A stretch of 64,000 bases of DNA from a virus, in the IMG/VR virus record IMGVR_UViG_3300037010_002253, positions 1 to 64,000 of that record; one strand, given 5' to 3'. Shown piece by piece: positions 1 through 35,414 of the stretch. The notes beneath the pieces were generated by a model, which saw nothing but the letters and a program-made list of their open reading frames with translations, searched no databases and was not told the origin of the DNA. Both the position numbers and the translations under genes were made by a program. Positions within the stretch are counted from its first letter, which is position 1. Every line of letters begins with the position of its first letter.

Positions 1-1149
1 CGCCGGGTTGCGCTCCCTGAACCACAGCGGGTCCGTGTGGTACGCAAGCCACGACTCCGCGAAGAACTCATGTGGGTCCTTCGCAGCGTACTTGGAGATG
101 AGGCCCGTCTTCTTGTAGAGAGACTCTCTCACTTCTGGCGACTCGTACCCAGGGTGTCCCGAGACAGCCTGGGTCGCCATCCTGTGCTTCTCGTGTTCCT
201 CTTCGATCCTACGAAGCAAGTCTTTCGTCTTCTCATCGGAAGCGTCCTTGTGCTTCATCCCGAGAAGTGTGAAGTGAACGTGGTGTCCGTACTCGTGGAT
301 GAGCGTGTGTGCGTCGAGGATGTCGCCGTTCGTCGCGCTGTCAGGCAGAAACTGCGTGGCTACTCTGTACGAAAATAGAGTAACCCCATCTCCAGGTACG
401 TGGTTAGACGGCGGCGGCACCCAGGAATCCGCGGGTGCTTTGGTGACGAATACCAAGTGTTTCCCCGCCGATGCGGCTTCGATCTTAGCGCTCTCCGCTT
501 CTGTCCGATCATAAGAGTTAGGCGTCGGTTGGGGCCCTCGCCCACTCTTCTCGAAAGCAAGAGCACTGTCTAGTCGATGCCCGAGGATACTGGGGGTGAG
601 GTACTGGCCACCCAGTCCGTTGAGGTCGCGCGTTGCGATGATCTCAACTGGATGCTTTTGCGCGAACTCACCGAGTCGCATCGCGCGCGCTGCCGCCTCG
701 TAGACACCGTGGTCCAGCTTCTCGCTCGCGACGATGGGCGCAGAGTTGAACGTCTGGGGGATGATCACCTCCCCCTGGCGCTTGGTCTCTTGGGACATCA
801 GCACCGCGGTATGCTGGCCCACCATGTCCCTCGGCTGGCGAGAGGTCGTCAGCTTCTTCTCGACTTTTGGTTCGAGCGCCTTCTCGATCCGCTTCACCGC
901 CTCGGCCCTCGCGGTCTCTGGGAGGGAAGGCGACTTCTTCGCTTCGGGGGTGGGCGGCGCCTTCCTCACCCCTGTCGTTCGCCCACTCTCCACGGATGTT
1001 GGGGTCGCCTTGGAGGGCGAGAGCTTCGCGTGCTCGGTGACGATGTGCGGAACCTCTCCGTAGACCTTGGTCCCCGTCCTGGTGATGTAGAACTTCCCCC
1101 CACGGGGACCGATCTGTTGGCCACCGGCTGCCTCACCTCGCCTCGCCAT
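1..1149 (-). CDS. Zinc metalloprotease (HExxH zincin, lethal-factor/MuF-associated type); runs off the window edge
   Basis: Missing from the ORF track because it has no stop in the window. Hand translation from ATG 1149 (GGAGG upstream) is open to base 1: MARRGEAAGGQQIGPRGGKFY...TLIHEYGHHVH...ISKYAAKDPHEFFAESW. Confidence 0.8.
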   Translation of the reverse strand, partial: MARRGEAAGGQQIGPRGGKFYITRTGTKVYGEVPHIVTEHAKLSPSKATPTSVESGRTTGVRKAPPTPEAKKSPSLPETARAEAVKRIEKALEPKVEKKLTTSRQPRDMVGQHTAVLMSQETKRQGEVIIPQTFNSAPIVASEKLDHGVYEAAARAMRLGEFAQKHPVEIIATRDLNGLGGQYLTPSILGHRLDSALAFEKSGRGPQPTPNSYDRTEAESAKIEAASAGKHLVFVTKAPADSWVPPPSNHVPGDGVTLFSYRVATQFLPDSATNGDILDAHTLIHEYGHHVHFTLLGMKHKDASDEKTKDLLRRIEEEHEKHRMATQAVSGHPGYESPEVRESLYKKTGLISKYAAKDPHEFFAESWLAYHTDPLWFRERNPA

Positions 1150-1161
1150 CGCCGACCTCCG

Positions 1162-1557
1162 CTACTTGCGCTGCTTCTTGGGGCGCGCGGTCTTCGCCCG
1201 CCCGCTGCGCGCACGATAGTAGCTCGGGTAGTCCTTCGGGGACATTTTCCCGCTAAGCACGTCCAGGGTCGTTTGGCAAAAATCGCGCAACGCCTCTTCG
1301 CACCGCGGGGAGCAGCAGATCGCGACCTGGTCGACCCTCAACTTGAGGTTGCAGCCGTAGTTCCGACACCGCATCGGGATCCCGTCTGCGGTCGTCATCG
1401 CGTAATAAGTACGCTTTCCTTGTGCGTCGACCTTCTTGGGTCGTCCGCGGCCTCTCTTCGGGACGATGACCCGCGCACCGGGTGCGATCTCGATCTTCGG
1501 CCTCTTCCCAGCCGCCGCCGCTCGAGCCACTTCGTCCCAAAGAGAGTTGTTCGCCAC
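1162..1557 (-). CDS. Basic putative DNA-binding protein with AT-hook-like motif and Cys cluster
   Basis: KRGRGRPKK; CRNYGC...CCSPRC; fits the minus-strand gene chain. Confidence 0.6.
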   Translation of the reverse strand: MANNSLWDEVARAAAAGKRPKIEIAPGARVIVPKRGRGRPKKVDAQGKRTYYAMTTADGIPMRCRNYGCNLKLRVDQVAICCSPRCEEALRDFCQTTLDVLSGKMSPKDYPSYYRARSGRAKTARPKKQRK

Positions 1558-1570
1558 GTCCGATGCCCTC

Positions 1571-1960
1571 CTAGTTGATGATCCGGAGGTGGGAACCCTT
1601 GGGCTTCGTCACCCGCGCCCCTTCGACCGCCGGCCCCCCGTCCTCGCCACGCACCATCGCCACGATCTTCGCGCACAGCTCCCGCTCCTCCTTCCCGAGG
1701 TCGAGGCTGTGCGCGAGGAAGTCGGCGAAGGAAATCCAGACGCGGAAGAGAACGCGACTGCTCAACGCCTCCCCCGTCTCGCCGTCGCTCGTGGCCATGC
1801 TCACGGACATGCCACCGTCCTCCTCGTGACGGACGCTCGCGATGGCGACCATGTCCGCCGCCTGGTGACCGAACCTCATGGCCTCCTCCTCCGTGAGGGG
1901 GGACGCCTGGTGCCGGCGCACGGTCCAGGAGAGAGGGAACTTGCGCCCCACGGTCAGCAC
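1571..1960 (-). CDS. Hypothetical protein
   Basis: 129-aa ORF overlapping the upstream stop; globular composition. Confidence 0.65.
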   Translation of the reverse strand: MLTVGRKFPLSWTVRRHQASPLTEEEAMRFGHQAADMVAIASVRHEEDGGMSVSMATSDGETGEALSSRVLFRVWISFADFLAHSLDLGKEERELCAKIVAMVRGEDGGPAVEGARVTKPKGSHLRIIN

Positions 1961-2385
1961 GCCTTCCCGCCGTGCCTGTATGGTCTCGTCTCGTTGAACA
2001 GCATCTTCTCCTCGATGTCCTTCTGGAGGTCGATGCCGTGTCGCTCCGCGAGGTCCATCACGCGGATGACGATGTCGGCGAGCTCGCTTCGGAACCCGAG
2101 GGGCTTCATGGGTTTCCCACTCCCGCCCTTCCGGAACTCGAAGACGAGGCCGGTCTTCCCCTTCTGGTACCGCTGGCCGAGGAAGTGGAAGCCGTCGGGG
2201 AGCTTGTCCTTCATCCGATACTCCTCGAGCGCCTCAGAGACCTCTGAGACGATCAGCATCAGTTTCTCGGGGATGGACTTCGTGGAGCCGGCCTCCTCAT
2301 CCGCCCACCACCCGTGCCTCACCGAGGTCACATGGACCCTCTTCTGCATCTCGCGGAAGGTTTCACCGAAAGGAAGGTGGCTCAC
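1954..2385 (-). CDS. MazG-like nucleotide pyrophosphohydrolase
   Basis: LIVSEVSEALEE...SELADIVIRVMDLA...EEKMLFNETRPYRHG; GTG start in a GTGA overlap at 2382-2385. Confidence 0.8.
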   Translation of the reverse strand: MSHLPFGETFREMQKRVHVTSVRHGWWADEEAGSTKSIPEKLMLIVSEVSEALEEYRMKDKLPDGFHFLGQRYQKGKTGLVFEFRKGGSGKPMKPLGFRSELADIVIRVMDLAERHGIDLQKDIEEKMLFNETRPYRHGGKAC

Positions 2386-2696
2386 TCCTCTTCCTCCTTG
2401 GCCTCGACGCCCATCACGACACCACGGATCGCGTAGCCGGCCTTGTCCTTCCACGGGTCCTCGCCGAAGGCGTCCTTGTCCGTGGCGATCCGCACCGACT
2501 TGTCGAAGTCGCGCACGAGGAGGCCGACGTCACCGTACCGCTCGACAGGGATCCCATCGGGGAACAGCAGCTCGAGGTACGCCGCCGTCTTCCCCGTGCT
2601 GTCCCCGTACGCCTCGTTCTTCTCCGTCACGAGCACGCCGATCTCCTCGGCCACCTTCTCGAACGGGCTCTGCTCCACCTTGGTCGTCTTCGCCAT
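2382..2696 (-). CDS. DUF1599/Nmad1-like nucleotide-modification-associated alpha-helical protein
   Basis: KNEAYGDS...RDFDKSVRI...EDPWKDKAGYA pattern. Confidence 0.65.
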   Translation of the reverse strand: MAKTTKVEQSPFEKVAEEIGVLVTEKNEAYGDSTGKTAAYLELLFPDGIPVERYGDVGLLVRDFDKSVRIATDKDAFGEDPWKDKAGYAIRGVVMGVEAKEEEE

Positions 2697-2717
2697 CTGC
2701 TAGTCCTCCGACTTCTT

Positions 2718-2910
2718 TCACTTCGGTTGCTTGTAAGAGACGCACCGGATCGTCCCACGGTCCGCATCCGGTCCGAAGATCATTAGCATGGAAGGGAACG
2801 TCGCGCCTTGCTGCGCCCCCCAGGAACTTGATTCTCCCGCCGCGCCAGCGAAGTGGTGGAACCACTTCATACCCGCGCGCGCCAGGTTCTTGATGATGAG
2901 CACGATCAGT
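2718..2910 (-). pseudogene. Degenerate C-terminal remnant of a phage Dam-type methyltransferase
   Basis: ARAGMKWFHH, then GRIKFLG in a second frame, then GATFPSMLMIFGP; resembles the phage Dam C-terminus but is broken by a deletion and a G6 run. Confidence 0.5.
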
Positions 2911-3409
2911 TCTTGTAGATGACCGCCCCATGAACGGGGCGGAGGATGGTCCGGAAGGTCGTGGTCGTGAGGTCCTTCGGCTCCTTCCAAGGACCGAGCT
3001 TCACATCTTCGTCACCGTCGAGCCCGAGAACCTGCGCGAACCACACCCGAGGGTGCTGAGTATCGCGGTGCTCAAGAACGAGAGAGAGGAGGGGGTACTT
3101 CTCACCGATGCGCGTGTGACCCATCGAGATGACAGCGACCGCGTCGAGATCCGCGGCGAGGGTACGCAAAGCGTTGGCGAACGCTTCGTCCCCCTCCTGA
3201 CGCTCCGCCATCGCGTCCTTGAGCGGGGTCATGTCGATGACCTGAGGAGAAGCGTACCGCTCTCCTTTCGCGTCCTTGCGGATGACCATGTGGATGTACG
3301 ACTCGAAGACCCCCTCGTCGATGTCAGACGTGGCTTCGCGCATCATCTCCTCACACAGCTCCTCGACGTCCCGCAGGCTTCCATCCATCCGCCCACGGTA
3401 CCGCTGCAT
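2906..3409 (-). CDS. Hypothetical protein
   Basis: Globular-looking ORF; start placed downstream of the palindrome (ATG 3409 or 3388). Confidence 0.65.
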   Translation of the reverse strand: MQRYRGRMDGSLRDVEELCEEMMREATSDIDEGVFESYIHMVIRKDAKGERYASPQVIDMTPLKDAMAERQEGDEAFANALRTLAADLDAVAVISMGHTRIGEKYPLLSLVLEHRDTQHPRVWFAQVLGLDGDEDVKLGPWKEPKDLTTTTFRTILRPVHGAVIYKN

Positions 3410-3452
3410 CACCCTCGAAGTCACCGGGATTGTGTTATGCATCGCCAAGCTC

Positions 3453-3522
3453 CTCGCGCGCGTCAGAGTCTCAGATCCGGATCCGGATCCGGAGAGATCA
3501 GACGCGCGTGCGTACGCGCGAG
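3453..3522. repeat. Imperfect ~70-bp palindrome with central (TCCGGA)n, copy A
   Basis: ctcgcgcgcgtcagagtctcagatccggatccggatccggagagatcagacgcgcgtgcgtacgcgcgag; related to 40421-40492. Confidence 0.85.
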
Positions 3523-3747
3523 CAATCCCTCCCACTCACTTTCCGCAACCTTAGTCGGTCGGGACGCAAAAAGGAAGAGGTAAAGAAAGCGGCCTTGTAC
3601 TTTTCTCGGGAGATGGTGTACGGGTTTGCTTACCACTTCCGGGATGGCTGCCAGCGGTTATCACACCCCCCACCCGAGGGGACGCGCTGGACGGTTCGCC
3701 ACCCCGGAGAGGGTTTTCTTTGGTCGATTGCTCCGCCGGGAAGGGGT

Positions 3748-3987
3748 CTAGGCGACGTCTTCCGACGATGGATGGACGATGACCGCCCTCGCCTTCGCGG
3801 ACGCCTCCAGCTCCGCATCGGTGACGCCGATGGAATGCAAAGCGCGGTAGTACGCTTGTCGGCTGACGCCGAACTCCCTCGCCATCCACGACACGCTTAC
3901 GCCGTGGGGGCGGCTGAGTTTGAGAGCCACCATCTTCGCTACGCGCGGATGGGTATCCATCAGCTTGAGAAACTGATCGTTTGTCAT
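3748..3987 (-). CDS. Small helix-turn-helix protein
   Basis: VSVSWMAREFGVSRQAYYRAL. Confidence 0.7.
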   Translation of the reverse strand: MTNDQFLKLMDTHPRVAKMVALKLSRPHGVSVSWMAREFGVSRQAYYRALHSIGVTDAELEASAKARAVIVHPSSEDVA

Positions 3988-29233: not shown

Positions 29234-30349
29234 CTACCTCTCCACCAGCGCCTCACGGATGTCCGCGCGGATCGCCTCTTGGATGTCCTCGTGTTCGCGC
29301 AGAATCGCAAGAAACTGCGCGGCGCTCGACGCCTCGATGCCATACCCCTCTAGGTTCGCCCCCCGCTGCTCGAGGAGGTCGTACCCACGCGCGAGGTTGA
29401 ACAACATGTCGGGGACGTCGAGGCCGGGCTCGATCTCGCTCGACCACGCGCCCTTGCCGCTCCCGCCGCTCTCCGCCCACGGTAGGAAGTAGAACGAGAA
29501 CTTCCCCACCCGCTCCGGCGTCGCGGTCTTGTTCTTCACGCAGCGCACGTTGAAGGTCCGCGAGACGATCTTGCGGTGCTCGGACTTGTCCTTCTCGGTG
29601 TACCGCAACTCCCCTTTCTTGAACTGAAGGGCGATGCTTTTCCAGTGAAGGATGCTACGCGCCTGGATCGGTTCCGGTTCGGGGGTTCCAGTCGGGGACC
29701 ACTTCCCGATCGCGCTGCGCACCTGAGAGATCCCGAGGATGGCCGTGTTCGACCCGCCCTGGTTCATCGCCGCGTAGGCCCGCCGCATGACACGCCCCCA
29801 CATCTGCGAGGACCCGCCGCCGCCGTACGCCTGCTTCTCGATCCCCGCCGACGCCTCCGTCGCCGTGCCGAAGCTCTGGAACGAGTCGAGAGCCAGCAGG
29901 TCGATGAGACCAGACTCGAACATGGTCATGGCCACCTCCATCGAGGTGTCTCCCATCCCCACGTCGACCATGATGAGCTTGTCTACGTTCACACCGAGCT
30001 TCCTCGCCCAGGCTGCGTCGAACCCCTCGCGGAAGAACCCAGCGGCGAGGCCGCCGTTCCTCTGGGTCTCCGCAATCGCGAGAAGCATAGCGAGAGACTT
30101 CCCGCTCGACTCCTCGCCGTGCAACTCCGTGAGCATCCCCTTCGGGTACCCGCCGCCCGTCAGGACGTCGAGCGTGTCGATCCCCGTGGGGATTCGCTGG
30201 ACGGGCGGGTGGTCGGTCCCGAGGTAGACGTGACCGTCCTCGAGCTCCCTGTTGATGGTCCCCATCATCGCCTTGAGCTGCTCCATCCTCGAGGGGACCC
30301 TCTCGGTGGCGGCGACCTTCTTCGTCTTCGTGACCTTCTTCTTCGGCAT
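29234..30349 (-). CDS. recA: RecA/UvsX-like recombinase
   Basis: IPTGIDTLDVLTGGGYPKG; GEESSGKS; ARKLGVN; LDS; SQVR; VKNK. Confidence 0.92.
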   Translation of the reverse strand: MPKKKVTKTKKVAATERVPSRMEQLKAMMGTINRELEDGHVYLGTDHPPVQRIPTGIDTLDVLTGGGYPKGMLTELHGEESSGKSLAMLLAIAETQRNGGLAAGFFREGFDAAWARKLGVNVDKLIMVDVGMGDTSMEVAMTMFESGLIDLLALDSFQSFGTATEASAGIEKQAYGGGGSSQMWGRVMRRAYAAMNQGGSNTAILGISQVRSAIGKWSPTGTPEPEPIQARSILHWKSIALQFKKGELRYTEKDKSEHRKIVSRTFNVRCVKNKTATPERVGKFSFYFLPWAESGGSGKGAWSSEIEPGLDVPDMLFNLARGYDLLEQRGANLEGYGIEASSAAQFLAILREHEDIQEAIRADIREALVER

Positions 30350-30357
30350 GGTGACTC

Positions 30358-33231
30358 CTACTGCTTCGCCTTACCCCAGGACTCCCCGAACCCGATCTCC
30401 GCTGGCGTGTCGACGCGGAGGTCCTTGAAGCCGTACACGCGGTACGGGTGGCTGACGTACTCCTCGATGATCGGCCGGCACTCCTCCTCCGCGCCCTTCG
30501 GGACGTTGAACAGCAGCTCGTCGTGAATCTGAAGGGTCATCTCGACGCCCAGCTCCTCAAGTCGCTTGTCCGCGTCGATGAGCAGCATCGACATCTTCAA
30601 TAGGTCGGCTGCACTTCCCTGGATGACGTAGTTGAACGCCTGCCGCTCCGCCCGCCTGCGCAATCCCATCTCGTCGGAGTTGATGAAGGGGATGGCCACC
30701 CGACGCCGGAGGATGGTCCTCACGAACCCGTCCTGGCGAGCTCTGCGCTGGATCCGGTCGATGCCCGACCTCATCCCCGCGTAGAGGTTGAAGAAGCCCT
30801 GCACCGCTTCCTTCCCTGCCTGCTCGCTGACGCCCGCCATCTGCGCGTACGTGCTCGGACCCATCCCGTACAGGGTGTTCCCGACGACGCGACCCTCAAC
30901 CGTGAAGCGATGCCGAGGACCTGCGTTCACGATGTCGTAGACCCGGGCGACCTGTTTCGGTTGTTGATAGAATAAGTGGTCAGCCTCAGATTCTGCGGCG
31001 AGTAGTGTCCATCGTTGTCGATCCGATCGAACACCAAGCCTTTGAAGGTAGAGTCCGACCACTTCTTCAACGCCCAGCGTACGAAGTGCTCCCTCGACCG
31101 AAACAAGACCTTGATGCCCCTCCCCTTGTACCGGGGGGACGAGACATGCGTGTCCCTCTCGCACCTCTGTACCATCGCGGCGTACCGACGACCGAGCATC
31201 GCCGCCCGGGAATCGTGGTACTTCTGCCCGCGCTGGCATCGGCAGTTCGTAGTTTTCCTCGCGCGAACGTTGTCCACTAGAAGCCAATGCTTCTTTTCGC
31301 ACGCGGAGCACTCCGCCTCTACGTACCTTCTCGCCCTCGACCCCGGCCTCGCGCGCCGCTCGACCTCGCCGGTCAAACGCATCGTACCCAACGGCAGCTT
31401 CCCCAGCTCCGCCAACAGCAAGTCGTCCGAAACGAACCGTGGATGCTGCGAGCCCGAACGGAATCTTGTGTCCTTCATCGGTGTAGACCTCGTGGCCGAG
31501 AGTTGCGGTGAGACCATCGTAAGTGAGGACGGCCTTTTCACCCTTGAACACCACCCCCTCATGGTGGACCCACTCTACCCCGTCCCATAGAAGATCGGAA
31601 TCCTGAACTCGCTCGATTGGGACGAGGCCACGCTTCGTGAGAACCCGCTGGCCCTCCGCGATGCAGCCGAAGTTGATCGTCTTGCTGCGCCGTCGCGCCT
31701 CGGGGAACTTCGCCTTGACCTCGTGCAGCAGGTCCCCGTCCACAGTCCGCGCTCCGACCCAGCGACGGACCTCCGAATCGATCTCGGTCGCCGTCAGGGA
31801 GTGCAAGTCCCACCCCCGGTTGATGGCGTTCAGCATCACCGCGTCGTTCGTGAAATGCGCCGCAAGACGCAACTCGATCTGGCTCAGGTCGATGTCCCCG
31901 ACCACGCATCCATCGGGCGCGATGAACGCCTCGCGAATGTGGAAGGCGTCGTTCTCCATGGACGGGATGTTCTGGAGGTTGTGCGCGGAGGACGACAAGC
32001 GAAGGGTCGCAGTTCCCGTCTGCTTGAGGTTGGTGTGGACCTTCCCGCCGTACTCACCGGCCGAGTGGATGAACGGCTCCACGTACGTTCCGCGCAACTT
32101 GTCCAGCTCGCGGTACGCCAGGATGATGTCCGCGATCTGCTTCGCCACTGGGTCCTTGAAGCTGGTCAGGGAATCGTCATCTGTCGACGGGAGGCCCGTG
32201 GGGGTTCGCTTCGCGATGGGCGTTCGGAGGTGGACCTCGAAGAGGTTCGCTACCTGCTTGGACGACCCGAGGTTGAAGTCGGCGAGCACGTCATTAGAGA
32301 CGCCGTACTTCTGGCAGGTGCGGAGGAACTCACTGACCGTATCCTCGATCTTCGCGTCGACCTGAAGCTTCATCTCCTCGAGCCGCACCGTGTCCACCCG
32401 ACACCCGCGCCGCTCCATGCGGTAGAGGACCTGGGTGTAAGGTAGGTCGAACTGCTTGTAGTAGTCCCAGTAGGATTTGCCGTTGACCCACTCCTCCGCC
32501 TCCAGGGCGGCCCTAAGGACCTCGAACCCCATCAGGGAGAAGAGCGGGTCTTTGCAGGCGTACGTGATGAGACGGTGGACGCCCACAGGGTCCTGCACCA
32601 CCTCGTCGAGGTGGGGGACCTCAAACGTCTTGCTAGGTGTCCCGTCTCGCTTGAGCTTCGGCCGCTTGAACGTCTCGCTGTACTCGCGGATGGCACCCCA
32701 CGTCTCGCCGAAGAGGGTGATGAGCTTGTACCCGAAGTACCTCTCCATGATGTGTTTCAGGCCGTGGTACATCTCGCCGCTCGCGGACAGCGTGTCCATG
32801 ACCTGCGTGTCCCCCGCGAACCCATCGAGCGTGATCCCGTGGTTCCCGCAGACGTGCATGTCGTACTTGAGGTTCGACCCGACCTTGCCGATGTCGGGGT
32901 CCTCCAAGACGCCCTTGAAGTGGCGCAGGGTCCCTTCCCACGGCCCCCAGTTCGGGACGAAGATCCGCGAGCCAGGAGCGCCTGGGTCGTACCCGCACGA
33001 GAACTGTGCGCAGATCGCGCGCGCCTTTCCTTTCGCGTGCTCCTTCCTCGGGTCGCATCCGACCGTCTCGGTATCGAAGCCGACGACTTCCGCGTCCCGG
33101 ATCATCCGAAGGGCTTGCCCAACCTTCTCCGGGGTATCAGTGATGAACGCCCCATCGACCTCGGGCAGCGTCGGTCCGCTGTAGTCGCGCCGCTTCTTGC
33201 GGCCGAGGTTCAAGTGCCACTGGTTTCCCAC
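30358..33231 (-). CDS. polA: Family A DNA polymerase (3'-5' exonuclease plus polymerase) containing an intein
   Basis: FDTET; RLSSSAHNLQNIP; DLSQIELR; KTINFG|TLYG; IQGSAAD; QIHDEL. Confidence 0.95.
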   Translation of the reverse strand: MGNQWHLNLGRKKRRDYSGPTLPEVDGAFITDTPEKVGQALRMIRDAEVVGFDTETVGCDPRKEHAKGKARAICAQFSCGYDPGAPGSRIFVPNWGPWEGTLRHFKGVLEDPDIGKVGSNLKYDMHVCGNHGITLDGFAGDTQVMDTLSASGEMYHGLKHIMERYFGYKLITLFGETWGAIREYSETFKRPKLKRDGTPSKTFEVPHLDEVVQDPVGVHRLITYACKDPLFSLMGFEVLRAALEAEEWVNGKSYWDYYKQFDLPYTQVLYRMERRGCRVDTVRLEEMKLQVDAKIEDTVSEFLRTCQKYGVSNDVLADFNLGSSKQVANLFEVHLRTPIAKRTPTGLPSTDDDSLTSFKDPVAKQIADIILAYRELDKLRGTYVEPFIHSAGEYGGKVHTNLKQTGTATLRLSSSAHNLQNIPSMENDAFHIREAFIAPDGCVVGDIDLSQIELRLAAHFTNDAVMLNAINRGWDLHSLTATEIDSEVRRWVGARTVDGDLLHEVKAKFPEARRRSKTINFGCIAEGQRVLTKRGLVPIERVQDSDLLWDGVEWVHHEGVVFKGEKAVLTYDGLTATLGHEVYTDEGHKIPFGLAASTVRFGRLAVGGAGEAAVGYDAFDRRGRAAREAGVEGEKVRRGGVLRVRKEALASSGQRSREENYELPMPARAEVPRFPGGDARSSVRRDGTEVREGHACLVPPVQGEGHQGLVSVEGALRTLGVEEVVGLYLQRLGVRSDRQRWTLLAAESEADHLFYQQPKQVARVYDIVNAGPRHRFTVEGRVVGNTLYGMGPSTYAQMAGVSEQAGKEAVQGFFNLYAGMRSGIDRIQRRARQDGFVRTILRRRVAIPFINSDEMGLRRRAERQAFNYVIQGSAADLLKMSMLLIDADKRLEELGVEMTLQIHDELLFNVPKGAEEECRPIIEEYVSHPYRVYGFKDLRVDTPAEIGFGESWGKAKQ
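30877..31665 (-). mobile_element. Intein (263 aa) inserted in PolA motif B
   Basis: Starts CIAEGQRVLT; block B TATLGH; block F VYDIVNAGPRHRF; ends VVGN with +1 Thr; removal restores KTINFG-TLYGMG. Confidence 0.92.
30927..31478 (-). CDS. HNH-type homing endonuclease nested in the +1 frame of the intein
   Basis: CSAC...NCRC; YAAMVQRC...RYKGRGIKV...FDRIDNDGHYSPQNLRLTT...NNRN; ATG 31478 with GAGGT upstream. Confidence 0.85.
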   Translation of the reverse strand: MKDTRFRSGSQHPRFVSDDLLLAELGKLPLGTMRLTGEVERRARPGSRARRYVEAECSACEKKHWLLVDNVRARKTTNCRCQRGQKYHDSRAAMLGRRYAAMVQRCERDTHVSSPRYKGRGIKVLFRSREHFVRWALKKWSDSTFKGLVFDRIDNDGHYSPQNLRLTTYSINNRNRSPGSTTS

Positions 33232-33258
33232 GAAATGACTCCTTTTGCTTATCCGACG

Positions 33259-33287
33259 AAAAGAGGGGAACCCGTGGGTTCCCCTCT
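33259..33287 (-). terminator. Intrinsic terminator after ssb
   Basis: agaggggaaccc/gggttcccctct stem followed by TTTT on the minus strand. Confidence 0.75.
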
Positions 33288-33304
33288 CCTCACCGCGCTA
33301 CGTC

Positions 33305-34334: not shown

Positions 34335-35414
34335 TCACTTCTTTCGTCGGCCACCTCGTTCCATGACCATGTTGTCGATGCGCCACTCGTCGTACGGCAC
34401 GACCCCGTGGATCGCGTCACGGAGCTGCTTCGCTCCATCAGAGACCTCGACAAGCGAACCCATGTCCTTCACGCCCTCAGGGTACTTGAGCACGTAGACC
34501 GACCCCGGTCCCATTTTCTCAAGAAGCTGGTCCCCGACGAAGAACGTGGTGAGCTGCCCATCCCGGTCGCTGTCGAACGCGAGGAAGACAAGCGAGTAGG
34601 TTCGCATCACATCGATCTGGTGCGTCGTCACCCGCGATCCCATCGTCGACACCGGGAGGTACGGCGCGACCTGGGTCGGGTGGTCCCCGGGTCGACCGGC
34701 AAGGTGGACGTAGTTGGGGAGGTCGCCCAGGTCGAGCTGGTCGAACGCAATAGCGTCGAGCTGCCCCTCCGTGACGACCAAGGTCTTCACCCCGTGGGGG
34801 CGCCTGTGCTCCCCGTAGAGGTGTTGGCCCTTGGAGAACCCGAGATGGAGGTACTTGGGGTTCTGCTCCTCCCACACAGCGCGTTTCGAGAACCCAACCA
34901 GCAGCCCGCTCCCCGACCGAACGGGGATGGTGGCGCGCTGTGCTTCCGTGTCGAACCCGATCTCCCACTCCTTGAGCACGTCCTTCGTGAACCCACGGTC
35001 CAGCAAGTACTTCGGGCAGCGATCGTAGAGGGTCAGGAGACGGGGGTTCGGAGCAGCGTGGATCACGTCCCCTGACGCCTTCGCGCCATGCGTGCGCCTC
35101 GCATCGTAGTCGGGGAGGATGGTGTCAGCCTCCTCCTCGGGGTCAAGTCCGCGGGCGAACGACGCGGTCTCGCCGATCGCCTTCTGCGGGGACCATCCGC
35201 ACGCTTCCACAAGGAAGGTGTAGATATTACCCTGCGCGCCACACCGCGACGAGTAGCAGACGTACAGACCCGTCTCCGCGTGCATAGCGAACTGGGTCCC
35301 GTCCTTGACGGCGTGGTACGGACAAGTACTTGTAAAGTTCCCGCTCGCAGAGAGCCGGATGCGCTCGCACCCGGCCTCCTTCATCCACCTCTCGACCTTC
35401 GCCGCGTTGCTCAC
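34335..35414 (-). CDS. DNA primase (zinc finger plus TOPRIM)
   Basis: CPYH...CYSSRC; PKY; VTEGQLDA; FDSDRDG; KD. Confidence 0.9.
   Translation of the reverse strand: MSNAAKVERWMKEAGCERIRLSASGNFTSTCPYHAVKDGTQFAMHAETGLYVCYSSRCGAQGNIYTFLVEACGWSPQKAIGETASFARGLDPEEEADTILPDYDARRTHGAKASGDVIHAAPNPRLLTLYDRCPKYLLDRGFTKDVLKEWEIGFDTEAQRATIPVRSGSGLLVGFSKRAVWEEQNPKYLHLGFSKGQHLYGEHRRPHGVKTLVVTEGQLDAIAFDQLDLGDLPNYVHLAGRPGDHPTQVAPYLPVSTMGSRVTTHQIDVMRTYSLVFLAFDSDRDGQLTTFFVGDQLLEKMGPGSVYVLKYPEGVKDMGSLVEVSDGAKQLRDAIHGVVPYDEWRIDNMVMERGGRRKK

Follow-up and report, generated by a model that had tools for sequence, protein, structure and literature searches.

Can the DNA of an intein also encode, in a second reading frame, the homing endonuclease that makes the intein mobile? 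The question is raised by a locus in the genome of an uncultured phage from IMG/VR (record IMGVR_UViG_3300037010_002253). This record has 81,362 bases and direct terminal repeats, and its completeness is rated at 100%. Its first 64 kb, which we call the window, contain on their minus strand a gene for a family A DNA polymerase whose motif B is split by a 263-amino-acid (aa) intein (positions 30877-31665). An open reading frame (ORF) of 183 codons lies wholly within the intein, in the +1 frame. An initial annotation, made from the nucleotide sequence alone, had proposed that this locus is a dual-coding mobile element. The analyses described here favor that proposal, and we estimate a probability of about 0.82 that the locus is an intein carrying a free-standing gene for a homing endonuclease in its +1 frame; in this reading, splicing, separate initiation of the nuclease gene, DNA cleavage and the cleavage target are predicted from sequence comparison and structural modeling.

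Two overlapping genes in one intein

The polymerase precursor is a single uninterrupted ORF (30358-33231, minus strand) that reads through the intein insert. Its 957 aa comprise an N-extein of 522 residues, the 263-residue intein and a C-extein of 172 residues, and it matches the Pfam families DNA_pol_A (E = 3.7e-87) and DNA_pol_A_exo1, the 3'-5' exonuclease domain (E = 5.2e-12). The intein, which is of class 1 type, separates KTINFG from TLYG within motif B. It begins with Cys1 (codon 31665-31663) and ends with Asn263 (30879-30877), which is followed by Thr+1 (30876-30874). From sequence alignment, model confidence and codon periodicity, its N-terminal splicing lobe extends over approximately residues 1-100 and includes blocks A and B (31366-31665). 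The C-terminal splicing lobe contains blocks F and G and runs up to Asn263 (30877-30960). Between the lobes, approximately residues 105-235 (30961-31353) form a linker that is open in the intein frame, unconserved as protein and predicted to be unstructured.

The overprinted +1 gene (P0061; 30927-31478, minus strand) consists of 183 codons and a stop codon, and encodes an HNH-like putative homing endonuclease with an N-terminal four-cysteine zinc ribbon. Its ATG (31478-31476) is built from the intein codons for Asp63 and Glu64, and its TGA (30929-30927) from the block F codons for Val246 and Asn247. A Shine-Dalgarno-like GAGGT (31487-31491, minus strand) is formed by the codons for Glu59 and Val60, directly behind the block B His (31494-31492). 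The spacing from GAGG to the ATG is 9 nt, and the motif is a candidate ribosome-binding site. We found the intein, the +1 ORF, the GAGGT motif and the stop codon in block F exactly where the initial annotation had placed them.

The G+C content of the nuclease stretch is 60%, and there had been a concern that high GC might explain why a second frame is open. This concern proved unfounded: among 1000 versions of the window's nuclease ORF with shuffled synonymous codons, only 2 (0.2%) kept an open intein frame. The shuffled sequences had a mean of 5.46 stop codons in the intein frame, compared to none observed, and the third frame has 7 stops where 6.15 are expected. In each of the 48 loci that we used to study selection (below), the intein frame likewise has no stops, compared to 1.6-12.4 expected from shuffles.

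A check for compensating insertions and deletions, set out beforehand, was made over positions 30600-32000 with Logan contigs (not raw reads) from three sequencing runs belonging to three studies, two of microbial mats and one of sediment. One of these runs (X1) is possibly the source of the window DNA, and the other two (X2 and X3) come from other samples and studies. The X2 contigs cover 30600-31065, 31167-31473 and 31465-32000, and the cover of X3 includes 31374-31525. The contigs have no base differences and no gaps relative to the window, and both of the junctions where the frame of interest changes are covered. The two-frame layout is neither an effect of GC content nor an assembly error.

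Splicing lobes joined by a disordered linker

In an alignment of 39 inteins related to the one in the window, five residues are invariant: C1, T55 and H58 (both in block B), D244 (block F) and N263. An AlphaFold2 model made with these 39 sequences is confident in both lobes, with block means for pLDDT (predicted local distance difference test) of 82-98 for residues 1-100, 73 for residues 231-240 and 95-97 for residues 241-263. Over residues 101-230 the means of 10-residue blocks are only 42-59, and pLDDT falls below 50 at residues 111-127, 157-212 and 224-230. The top listed PDB matches to this model in a Foldseek search are all inteins or HINT domains, among them the gp41-1, Npu DnaE and DnaB mini-inteins, with E-values that are weak, starting from 5.9e-3. 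The center of the intein matches no Pfam or NCBIfam family, which together with the low pLDDT agrees with the earlier statement that no endonuclease motif can be seen there. The insert has the features of a class 1-type intein with both of its splicing lobes intact, which presumably splices.

The linker does not account for the whole overlap. About 38 codons at positions 31366-31478 are confidently structured in both frames and conserved in both protein alignments, with block-mean pLDDT of 82-96 for intein residues 63-100 and 77-97 for nuclease residues 1-38. This part of the overlap is truly a doubly constrained stretch.

The +1 protein is a probable relative of phage HNH endonucleases

By searching a collection of 5.8 billion proteins we found 58 homologs of the +1 protein, with 46-66% identity and E-values between 9e-69 and 5e-13. 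Many of them had been called as separate genes that start at the same Met, and several share the C-terminal residues that result from reading block F in the +1 frame. Two PHROGs profiles annotated as HNH endonuclease match the protein (phrog_374, E = 2.4e-23; phrog_3377, E = 4.2e-18). Its AlphaFold2 model, from an alignment of 48 sequences, has a mean pLDDT of 92.1, compared to linker block means of 42-59 in the intein frame. The same DNA is therefore predicted to specify a folded protein when read in +1 and a disordered linker when read in frame 0. Matches to the model in BFVD are phage HNH or homing endonucleases, with E-values from 9e-10, and among ESM Atlas clusters the nearest are viral ones, including one named 'Homing endonuclease family protein' (0.94).

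Two patterns are invariant in the nuclease family. The N-terminal half contains four cysteines, and the C-terminal half the motif Asp-Arg ... Gly-x-Tyr ... Asn. In the model, the second motif is carried by a strand (residues 148-152), a second strand (164-168) and a helix (169-174). Among the 48 sequences, Tyr159 in the loop between the strands is invariant, as is N163, and conservation reaches at least 90% at N172 and N175. The best structural match is to the restriction enzyme PacI in complex with DNA (3m7k_A; Z = 6.4, root-mean-square deviation 2.6 Å over 81 residues, 21% identity, model residues 85-179). PacI has no catalytic His, and a Tyr in the loop takes over its role (PMC5714182). Tyr159 could replace the catalytic His in the same way, if the two tyrosines are equivalent at residue level.

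The initial annotation had called the +1 protein a complete HNH-family endonuclease. The PHROGs profiles suggest a relationship to HNH proteins. The family assignment is partly a label: an Arg stands where the canonical catalytic His would be, and the protein does not match a Pfam HNH model, so we describe it as HNH-like rather than as a proven member of the HNH family. It does not match the Pfam Endonuclease_7 or LAGLIDADG families either.

Selection acts on the +1 protein

We compared the two frames using 48 non-identical loci in which the nuclease gene is in the +1 frame. Three other loci were left out because our boundary heuristic failed on them (L019, L020 and L047), and two because they are duplicates (L011 and L018). 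In the overlap, the mean pairwise difference at nuclease-frame codon positions 1, 2 and 3 is 0.51, 0.457 and 0.638; the least variable of these, nuclease-frame position 2, is position 3 of the intein frame. Outside the overlap the periodicity is that of the intein: intein-frame positions 1, 2 and 3 differ by 0.387, 0.292 and 0.661 in the first 60 aa of the intein, and by 0.345, 0.251 and 0.669 in its last 22 aa. Mean pairwise amino acid identity, calculated from the same alignment columns, is 0.373 in the +1 frame, 0.206 in the intein frame and 0.213 in the third frame, and 1127 of 1128 pairs of loci have a higher identity in the nuclease frame.

The ratio of nonsynonymous to synonymous substitution rates (dN/dS), which had been suggested as a check on each frame, gives the same picture. 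For the 40 pairs of loci with at least 55% nuclease identity, the median Nei-Gojobori dN/dS is 1.424 in the intein frame, where all 40 pairs contribute, and 0.193 in the nuclease frame, where dS is usable for 21 of them, with the reservation that overlapping frames bias such estimates. When the window is compared with one relative (L003), the nuclease frame gives 0.239/0.623 for the proportions of nonsynonymous and synonymous sites that differ (pN/pS), and the intein frame gives 0.362/0.258. These comparisons support purifying selection on the +1 protein across the overlap, with the intein frame apparently constrained only to avoid stop codons.

The two-frame layout recurs in a large family

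With the nuclease as seed, a profile scan of IMG/VR found 61 viral loci, every one of which has the nuclease ORF nested, out of frame, inside a stop-free ORF of 611-1794 aa. Both frames are thus open in the relatives, as had been noted for the window. The nuclease is in the +1 frame at 51 of these loci and in the +2 frame at 10. The +2 type is seen in those ten IMG/VR loci (L051-L056 and L060-L063), in L068 and in the phage f18SE described below. The longest of the stop-free ORFs, a polymerase ORF of 1794 aa (L016, 2-5383), has this intein and also matches the Pfam families LAGLIDADG_2 (residues 161-318) and Intein_splicing (residues 713-947); this polymerase appears to hold several inteins.

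Isolated phages also carry the nuclease. A TBLASTN search with the nuclease matched 593 phage records, and a DNA polymerase annotation covers 37 of the 40 matches listed (the frame was checked in one). For example, the Jerseyvirus Salmonella phage f18SE (NC_028698; L001), whose genome is approximately 50% G+C, has a 1032-aa polymerase coding sequence (846-3944) with an intein that starts with Cys and ends in His-Asn followed by Cys. A 247-aa ORF homologous to the nuclease lies in its +2 frame (2279-3022) and is unannotated in the RefSeq record.

A second IMG/VR scan started from the intein alignment and matched at least 578 stretches. Confirmation succeeded for at least 528 of them, and we kept the best 80, which share at least 12 contigs with the nuclease-seeded set. 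A full nuclease gene in the +1 frame is present at 55 of these 80 loci, and 3 others retain a remnant of it in the same frame, consisting of its N-terminal part (L073, L100 and L119). A further 16 are mini-inteins of 120-171 aa without a nuclease (for example L092, L102 and L117), and the other 6 are cut matches that contain only the N-terminal part of the intein. No locus has a nuclease that is in frame with the intein or encoded on the opposite strand, so that no in-frame version was found among the 58 loci with nuclease sequence in this best 80 of at least 528 intein-seeded relatives. Nor did we find a fusion to an intein or polymerase among longer proteins in the 5.8-billion collection, where the search gave only two free-standing proteins, of 400 and 359 aa; this is weak evidence. 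The remnants and mini-inteins look like stages in the loss of the endonuclease.

The element occurs at many sites. Intein and nuclease are found together in at least eight flanking contexts within family A polymerases, at motif A and at several positions in motif B. The same intein with its +1 nuclease also interrupts superfamily 2 helicases (ResIII/DEAD plus Helicase_C) at two loci (L042, 2078-4687; L058, 2072-4738), which indicates that the element has switched host gene. Staphylococcus phage IME1367_01 (L002) has a 193-aa homolog (1414-1995) between two ORFs for N-acetylmuramoyl-L-alanine amidase. This homolog keeps the Asp-Arg ... Gly-Tyr ... Asn motif, and it looks like an intron-borne copy. 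Bacterial genome bins yielded six loci, two of them nested and four not. At two of the four that are not nested, in bins of Micavibrio and Chthoniobacteraceae (L065, 3094-4058, and L067, 16-3551), the nuclease gene stands directly behind a family A polymerase ORF that ends at motif B. Both lack an intein, and the C-terminal half of the polymerase is missing from the neighborhood; they may be decayed prophage remnants. An integrase-like ORF adjoins the nuclease gene of L067. Taken together, the varied mobile contexts, the remnants and the mini-inteins resemble the pattern expected from an active homing cycle.

In the window itself, the polymerase gene is flanked on the same strand by ORFs that we named by eye from their translations: a RecA-like ORF of 371 aa (29234-30349) and a primase-like ORF of 359 aa (34335-35414).

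Candidate start sites of the nuclease gene

At each of the 48 loci we took the ATG nearest to the aligned N-terminus of the nuclease as a candidate start, which is not the same as a mapped start. By this rule, 47 of the 48 loci have a start codon near the aligned N-terminus (46 ATG and one TTG; L015 has none). The starts recur at three places: 11 loci, among them the window, have the start just behind block B (offset 0 or +1), 8 have it over the block B Asp-His (offset -5), and 14 have it over an upstream Thr-Tyr-Asp-Gly motif (offset -14). The arrangement seen in the window, with GAGG at 9 nt from the ATG, is shared by three other loci (L003, L017 and L032), and in L064 the GAGG is at 12 nt.

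A model for the element, and its alternatives

Building on the architecture of the locus, its conservation among relatives, the selection seen in both frames and the AlphaFold2-predicted folds of both products, we propose the following model. Translation in frame 0 would produce a precursor of N-extein, intein and C-extein, in which the two lobes dock, excise the intein together with its disordered linker and restore motif B. The linker, about 130 residues long, would have to satisfy one requirement only, that it contain no stop codon; because it would tolerate any stop-free sequence, a foreign gene could occupy it in another frame. Read in the +1 frame, the linker DNA together with about 38 codons of the N-terminal lobe and a few codons of block F would specify a free-standing 183-aa nuclease with an N-terminal zinc ribbon and a C-terminal beta-beta-alpha module. 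Other ribosomes would most likely start on this gene at the ATG at 31478, by means of the GAGG ribosome-binding site made from the codons behind the block B His. In co-infecting relatives whose polymerase allele has no intein, the nuclease would most likely cut this allele near motif B, and repair would then copy the intein and the nuclease gene into it together. The proposal of a dual-coding mobile element is strengthened, relative to its first statement, by the nested layout in relatives, by selection on the +1 protein, by the homologs that start at the same Met, by the contigs without indels and by the lack of in-frame versions among 58 loci.

A broader claim would be that the overprinted layout is a stable, ancestral design of a very large family of phage inteins rather than a passing accident. 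It is suggested by the number of relatives (at least 528), the absence of in-frame versions among 58 loci, the many insertion sites including helicases, the ribosome-binding site and start that lie in block B codons, and the approximately 38 codons that are structured in both frames. We put this claim forward tentatively, and consider it somewhat more likely to be wrong than right. If it is true, uncoupling the dosage of the nuclease from that of the polymerase would be a selected advantage.

Several observations count against the dual-coding reading. The penultimate residue of the intein is Gly instead of His. The +1 protein matches no Pfam or NCBIfam family, and five of its nuclease relatives that we searched have no Pfam match either. 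No solved structure is related to it by sequence in profile and single-sequence searches, and a Foldseek search of the PDB with its model gave nothing at E ≤ 0.001, PacI appearing at rank 47 with E = 2.1; the Z-score of 6.4 for PacI is within the range that is common for such matches and is not decisive. The canonical catalytic His is replaced by an Arg that is invariant in the 48 sequences (in the pair D151, R152), so activity would need a tyrosine mechanism like that of PacI. The apparent start of the nuclease gene varies in position among loci, and a Shine-Dalgarno-like motif is present in only 29 of 48. The sequences compared for selection are divergent, with dS saturated in 19 of the 40 pairs, and some of the heuristic N-terminal boundaries are wrong (such as those of L008, L027, L040, L042 and L058), which adds noise to the codon-position figure for the N-terminal lobe. 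Finally, we found no close relative of the polymerase in the window: a MEGABLAST search of the phage collection with its gene gave no match, and pattern scans of IMG/VR found no close relatives of the nuclease or the N-extein, so there is no intein-less allele of this polymerase for comparison.

Some of these points concern the activity of the +1 protein, which might be conserved and yet no longer be a nuclease, acting instead in DNA binding, in regulation or as a homing factor that depends on another enzyme. The invariant Arg and the lack of a Pfam HNH match point this way, and there are His-Me finger groups that lack both the His and the Tyr and have lost activity, according to the survey in PMC5714182. 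The +1 protein, however, has an invariant loop Tyr as in PacI, its best structural match, and its element is inserted at many sites in two host gene families and has left remnants and mini-inteins of the kind a homing cycle would produce. We regard the loss of nuclease activity as unlikely. It is less probable still that the protein is made as a fusion of N-extein, N-intein and nuclease by programmed +1 ribosomal frameshifting. That mechanism would fit a nuclease that is on the same strand and in the +1 frame at 51 of 61 loci, the upstream GAGG could be a stimulator of frameshifting instead of an initiation site, and 19 of the 48 loci have no Shine-Dalgarno-like motif at all. A single +1 slippage would not serve the +2 group (10 of 61 loci), however, and the frameshifting account is also at odds with the ATG that 46 of 48 loci have close to the aligned N-terminus, the homologs called as stand-alone proteins from the same Met, and the relatives that have no intein, in the Staphylococcus phage and in the bacterial metagenome-assembled genomes at L065 and L067.

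Two further explanations can be set aside almost entirely. One is that an in-frame HNH domain was moved out of frame by two compensating indels, either in sequencing or in assembly. The window is a metagenome assembly, and a real-looking protein changes frame close to blocks B and F; but Logan contigs from two other samples and studies cross both junctions without gaps, the layout is the same in 61 of 61 viral loci and in isolated Jerseyvirus phages, and no in-frame version is found among the 58 intein-seeded nuclease loci or, as weak evidence, among the longer proteins of the 5.8-billion set. The other is that the insert is a self-splicing intron with a free-standing endonuclease gene. The homolog between two amidase gene pieces in the Staphylococcus phage does look intron-like. 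At the window locus, by contrast, the polymerase frame continues through the insert and avoids stops far beyond chance, the insert has canonical intein blocks and a confidently predicted HINT-like fold, and an Rfam search of 30300-33300 with E-values up to 1 gave no intron match, the sole match being a chance one to a small nucleolar RNA (E = 0.17). We thus retain the reading of an intein with a free-standing nuclease gene in its +1 frame.

If it is correct, an intein linker can be a safe harbor for an independent gene, because splicing discards the nonsense peptide and the host frame need only avoid stop codons. Nuclease genes of this kind are missed routinely in annotation, as in the 37 of 40 listed phage matches that are covered by a DNA polymerase feature only. 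The family is large and easily sampled, which makes it suitable for testing the 'splicing first, endonuclease later' model of how inteins arose. It also bears on how hidden ORFs are translated, and on how two proteins can share about 110 nt of doubly constrained sequence. Jersey-like phages of E. coli and Salmonella are culturable carriers.

Relationship to known systems

The initial annotation had allowed that precedents might exist, and they do: intein endonucleases encoded out of frame have already been described. Both of the preprints discussed below credit Gorbalenya (1998, 'Non-canonical inteins') with the first proposal that intein endonucleases can lie in an alternative or antisense frame. 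The cases were, as those preprints relate them, LAGLIDADG endonucleases in Synechocystis dnaX and in a Chloroflexus gene, and not HNH-like proteins in phage family A polymerases. Our search found no published description of the present family of polymerase inteins with an HNH-like nuclease, although subscription journals or the supplementary tables of Gosselin et al. might hold one. The accessible text of a paper that mentions Jerseyvirus (PMC8425127) treats a capsid-protein intein and homing endonucleases in general, and not a polymerase intein with a frame-shifted nuclease. A paper on phage Felix O1 (PMC3185647) is, in the portion available, not relevant.

One close parallel is the 'non-canonical' inteins of actinophages, in which Gosselin, Arsenault and Gogarten (10.1101/2025.01.02.630785) report an endonuclease VII-like gene in frame 3, as well as antisense LAGLIDADG and VSR-like genes. 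As in the window, the DNA between the splicing blocks carries an endonuclease ORF in a different frame of the same strand, and the intein-frame reading of that DNA has no recognizable fold. These authors propose an origin by invasion, in which a mini-intein acquired an endonuclease gene that had been free-standing (10.1101/2025.01.02.630785). The nucleases differ: theirs resembles endonuclease VII (IPR004211), with a match to 1E7D at residues 1-67, whereas the one described here matches no Pfam family and has a predicted C-terminal, PacI-like beta-beta-alpha module. The host gene is also different, being the Pol III alpha subunit in their preprint and a family A polymerase here, and their survey was limited to PhagesDB (10.1101/2025.01.02.630785).

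A cyanobacterial dnaX intein with a LAGLIDADG endonuclease ORF in the +2 frame has been described by Phillips, DeSimone and Gogarten (10.64898/2026.09.14.751524). It resembles our family in having an overlapping endonuclease ORF, a low dN/dS in the endonuclease frame with a raised value in the intein frame, and mini-intein relatives, and its authors interpret it as a secondary invasion (10.64898/2026.09.14.751524). It differs in the class of endonuclease, in the frame, and in residing in a cellular cyanobacterial gene instead of a phage polymerase.

Two other phage systems share part of the design. The ShiLan domain is a hidden out-of-frame HNH gene in a phage methylase (Arsenault et al., Genes 2025, PMC11855218). 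There too a host ORF without stops shares its DNA with an overprinted HNH gene in another frame, and the same question arises of how the hidden ORF is translated. That element, as described there, has no splicing domains and is thought to be kept as a loop in the host protein, whereas here the intein should remove the peptide made from the junk frame. In the fractured genes of Dassa et al. (2009, PMC2677866), an endonuclease gene that stands free is flanked by split inteins. These resemble our locus in combining a free-standing endonuclease gene with intein halves in phage replication genes, but in them the host gene is broken into two ORFs, and here the polymerase ORF is continuous.

PacI (3m7k/3ldy), which is placed in group 20 of the His-Me finger proteins (PMC5714182), is like the +1 protein in lacking the canonical catalytic His and in having a Tyr in the loop between the strands. 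The two have no detectable sequence relationship and different N-terminal domains, and PacI is a restriction enzyme and not the nuclease of a mobile element. The out-of-frame intein endonuclease is already in the literature as a concept, and what the present family adds to it is breadth and testability rather than a new principle.

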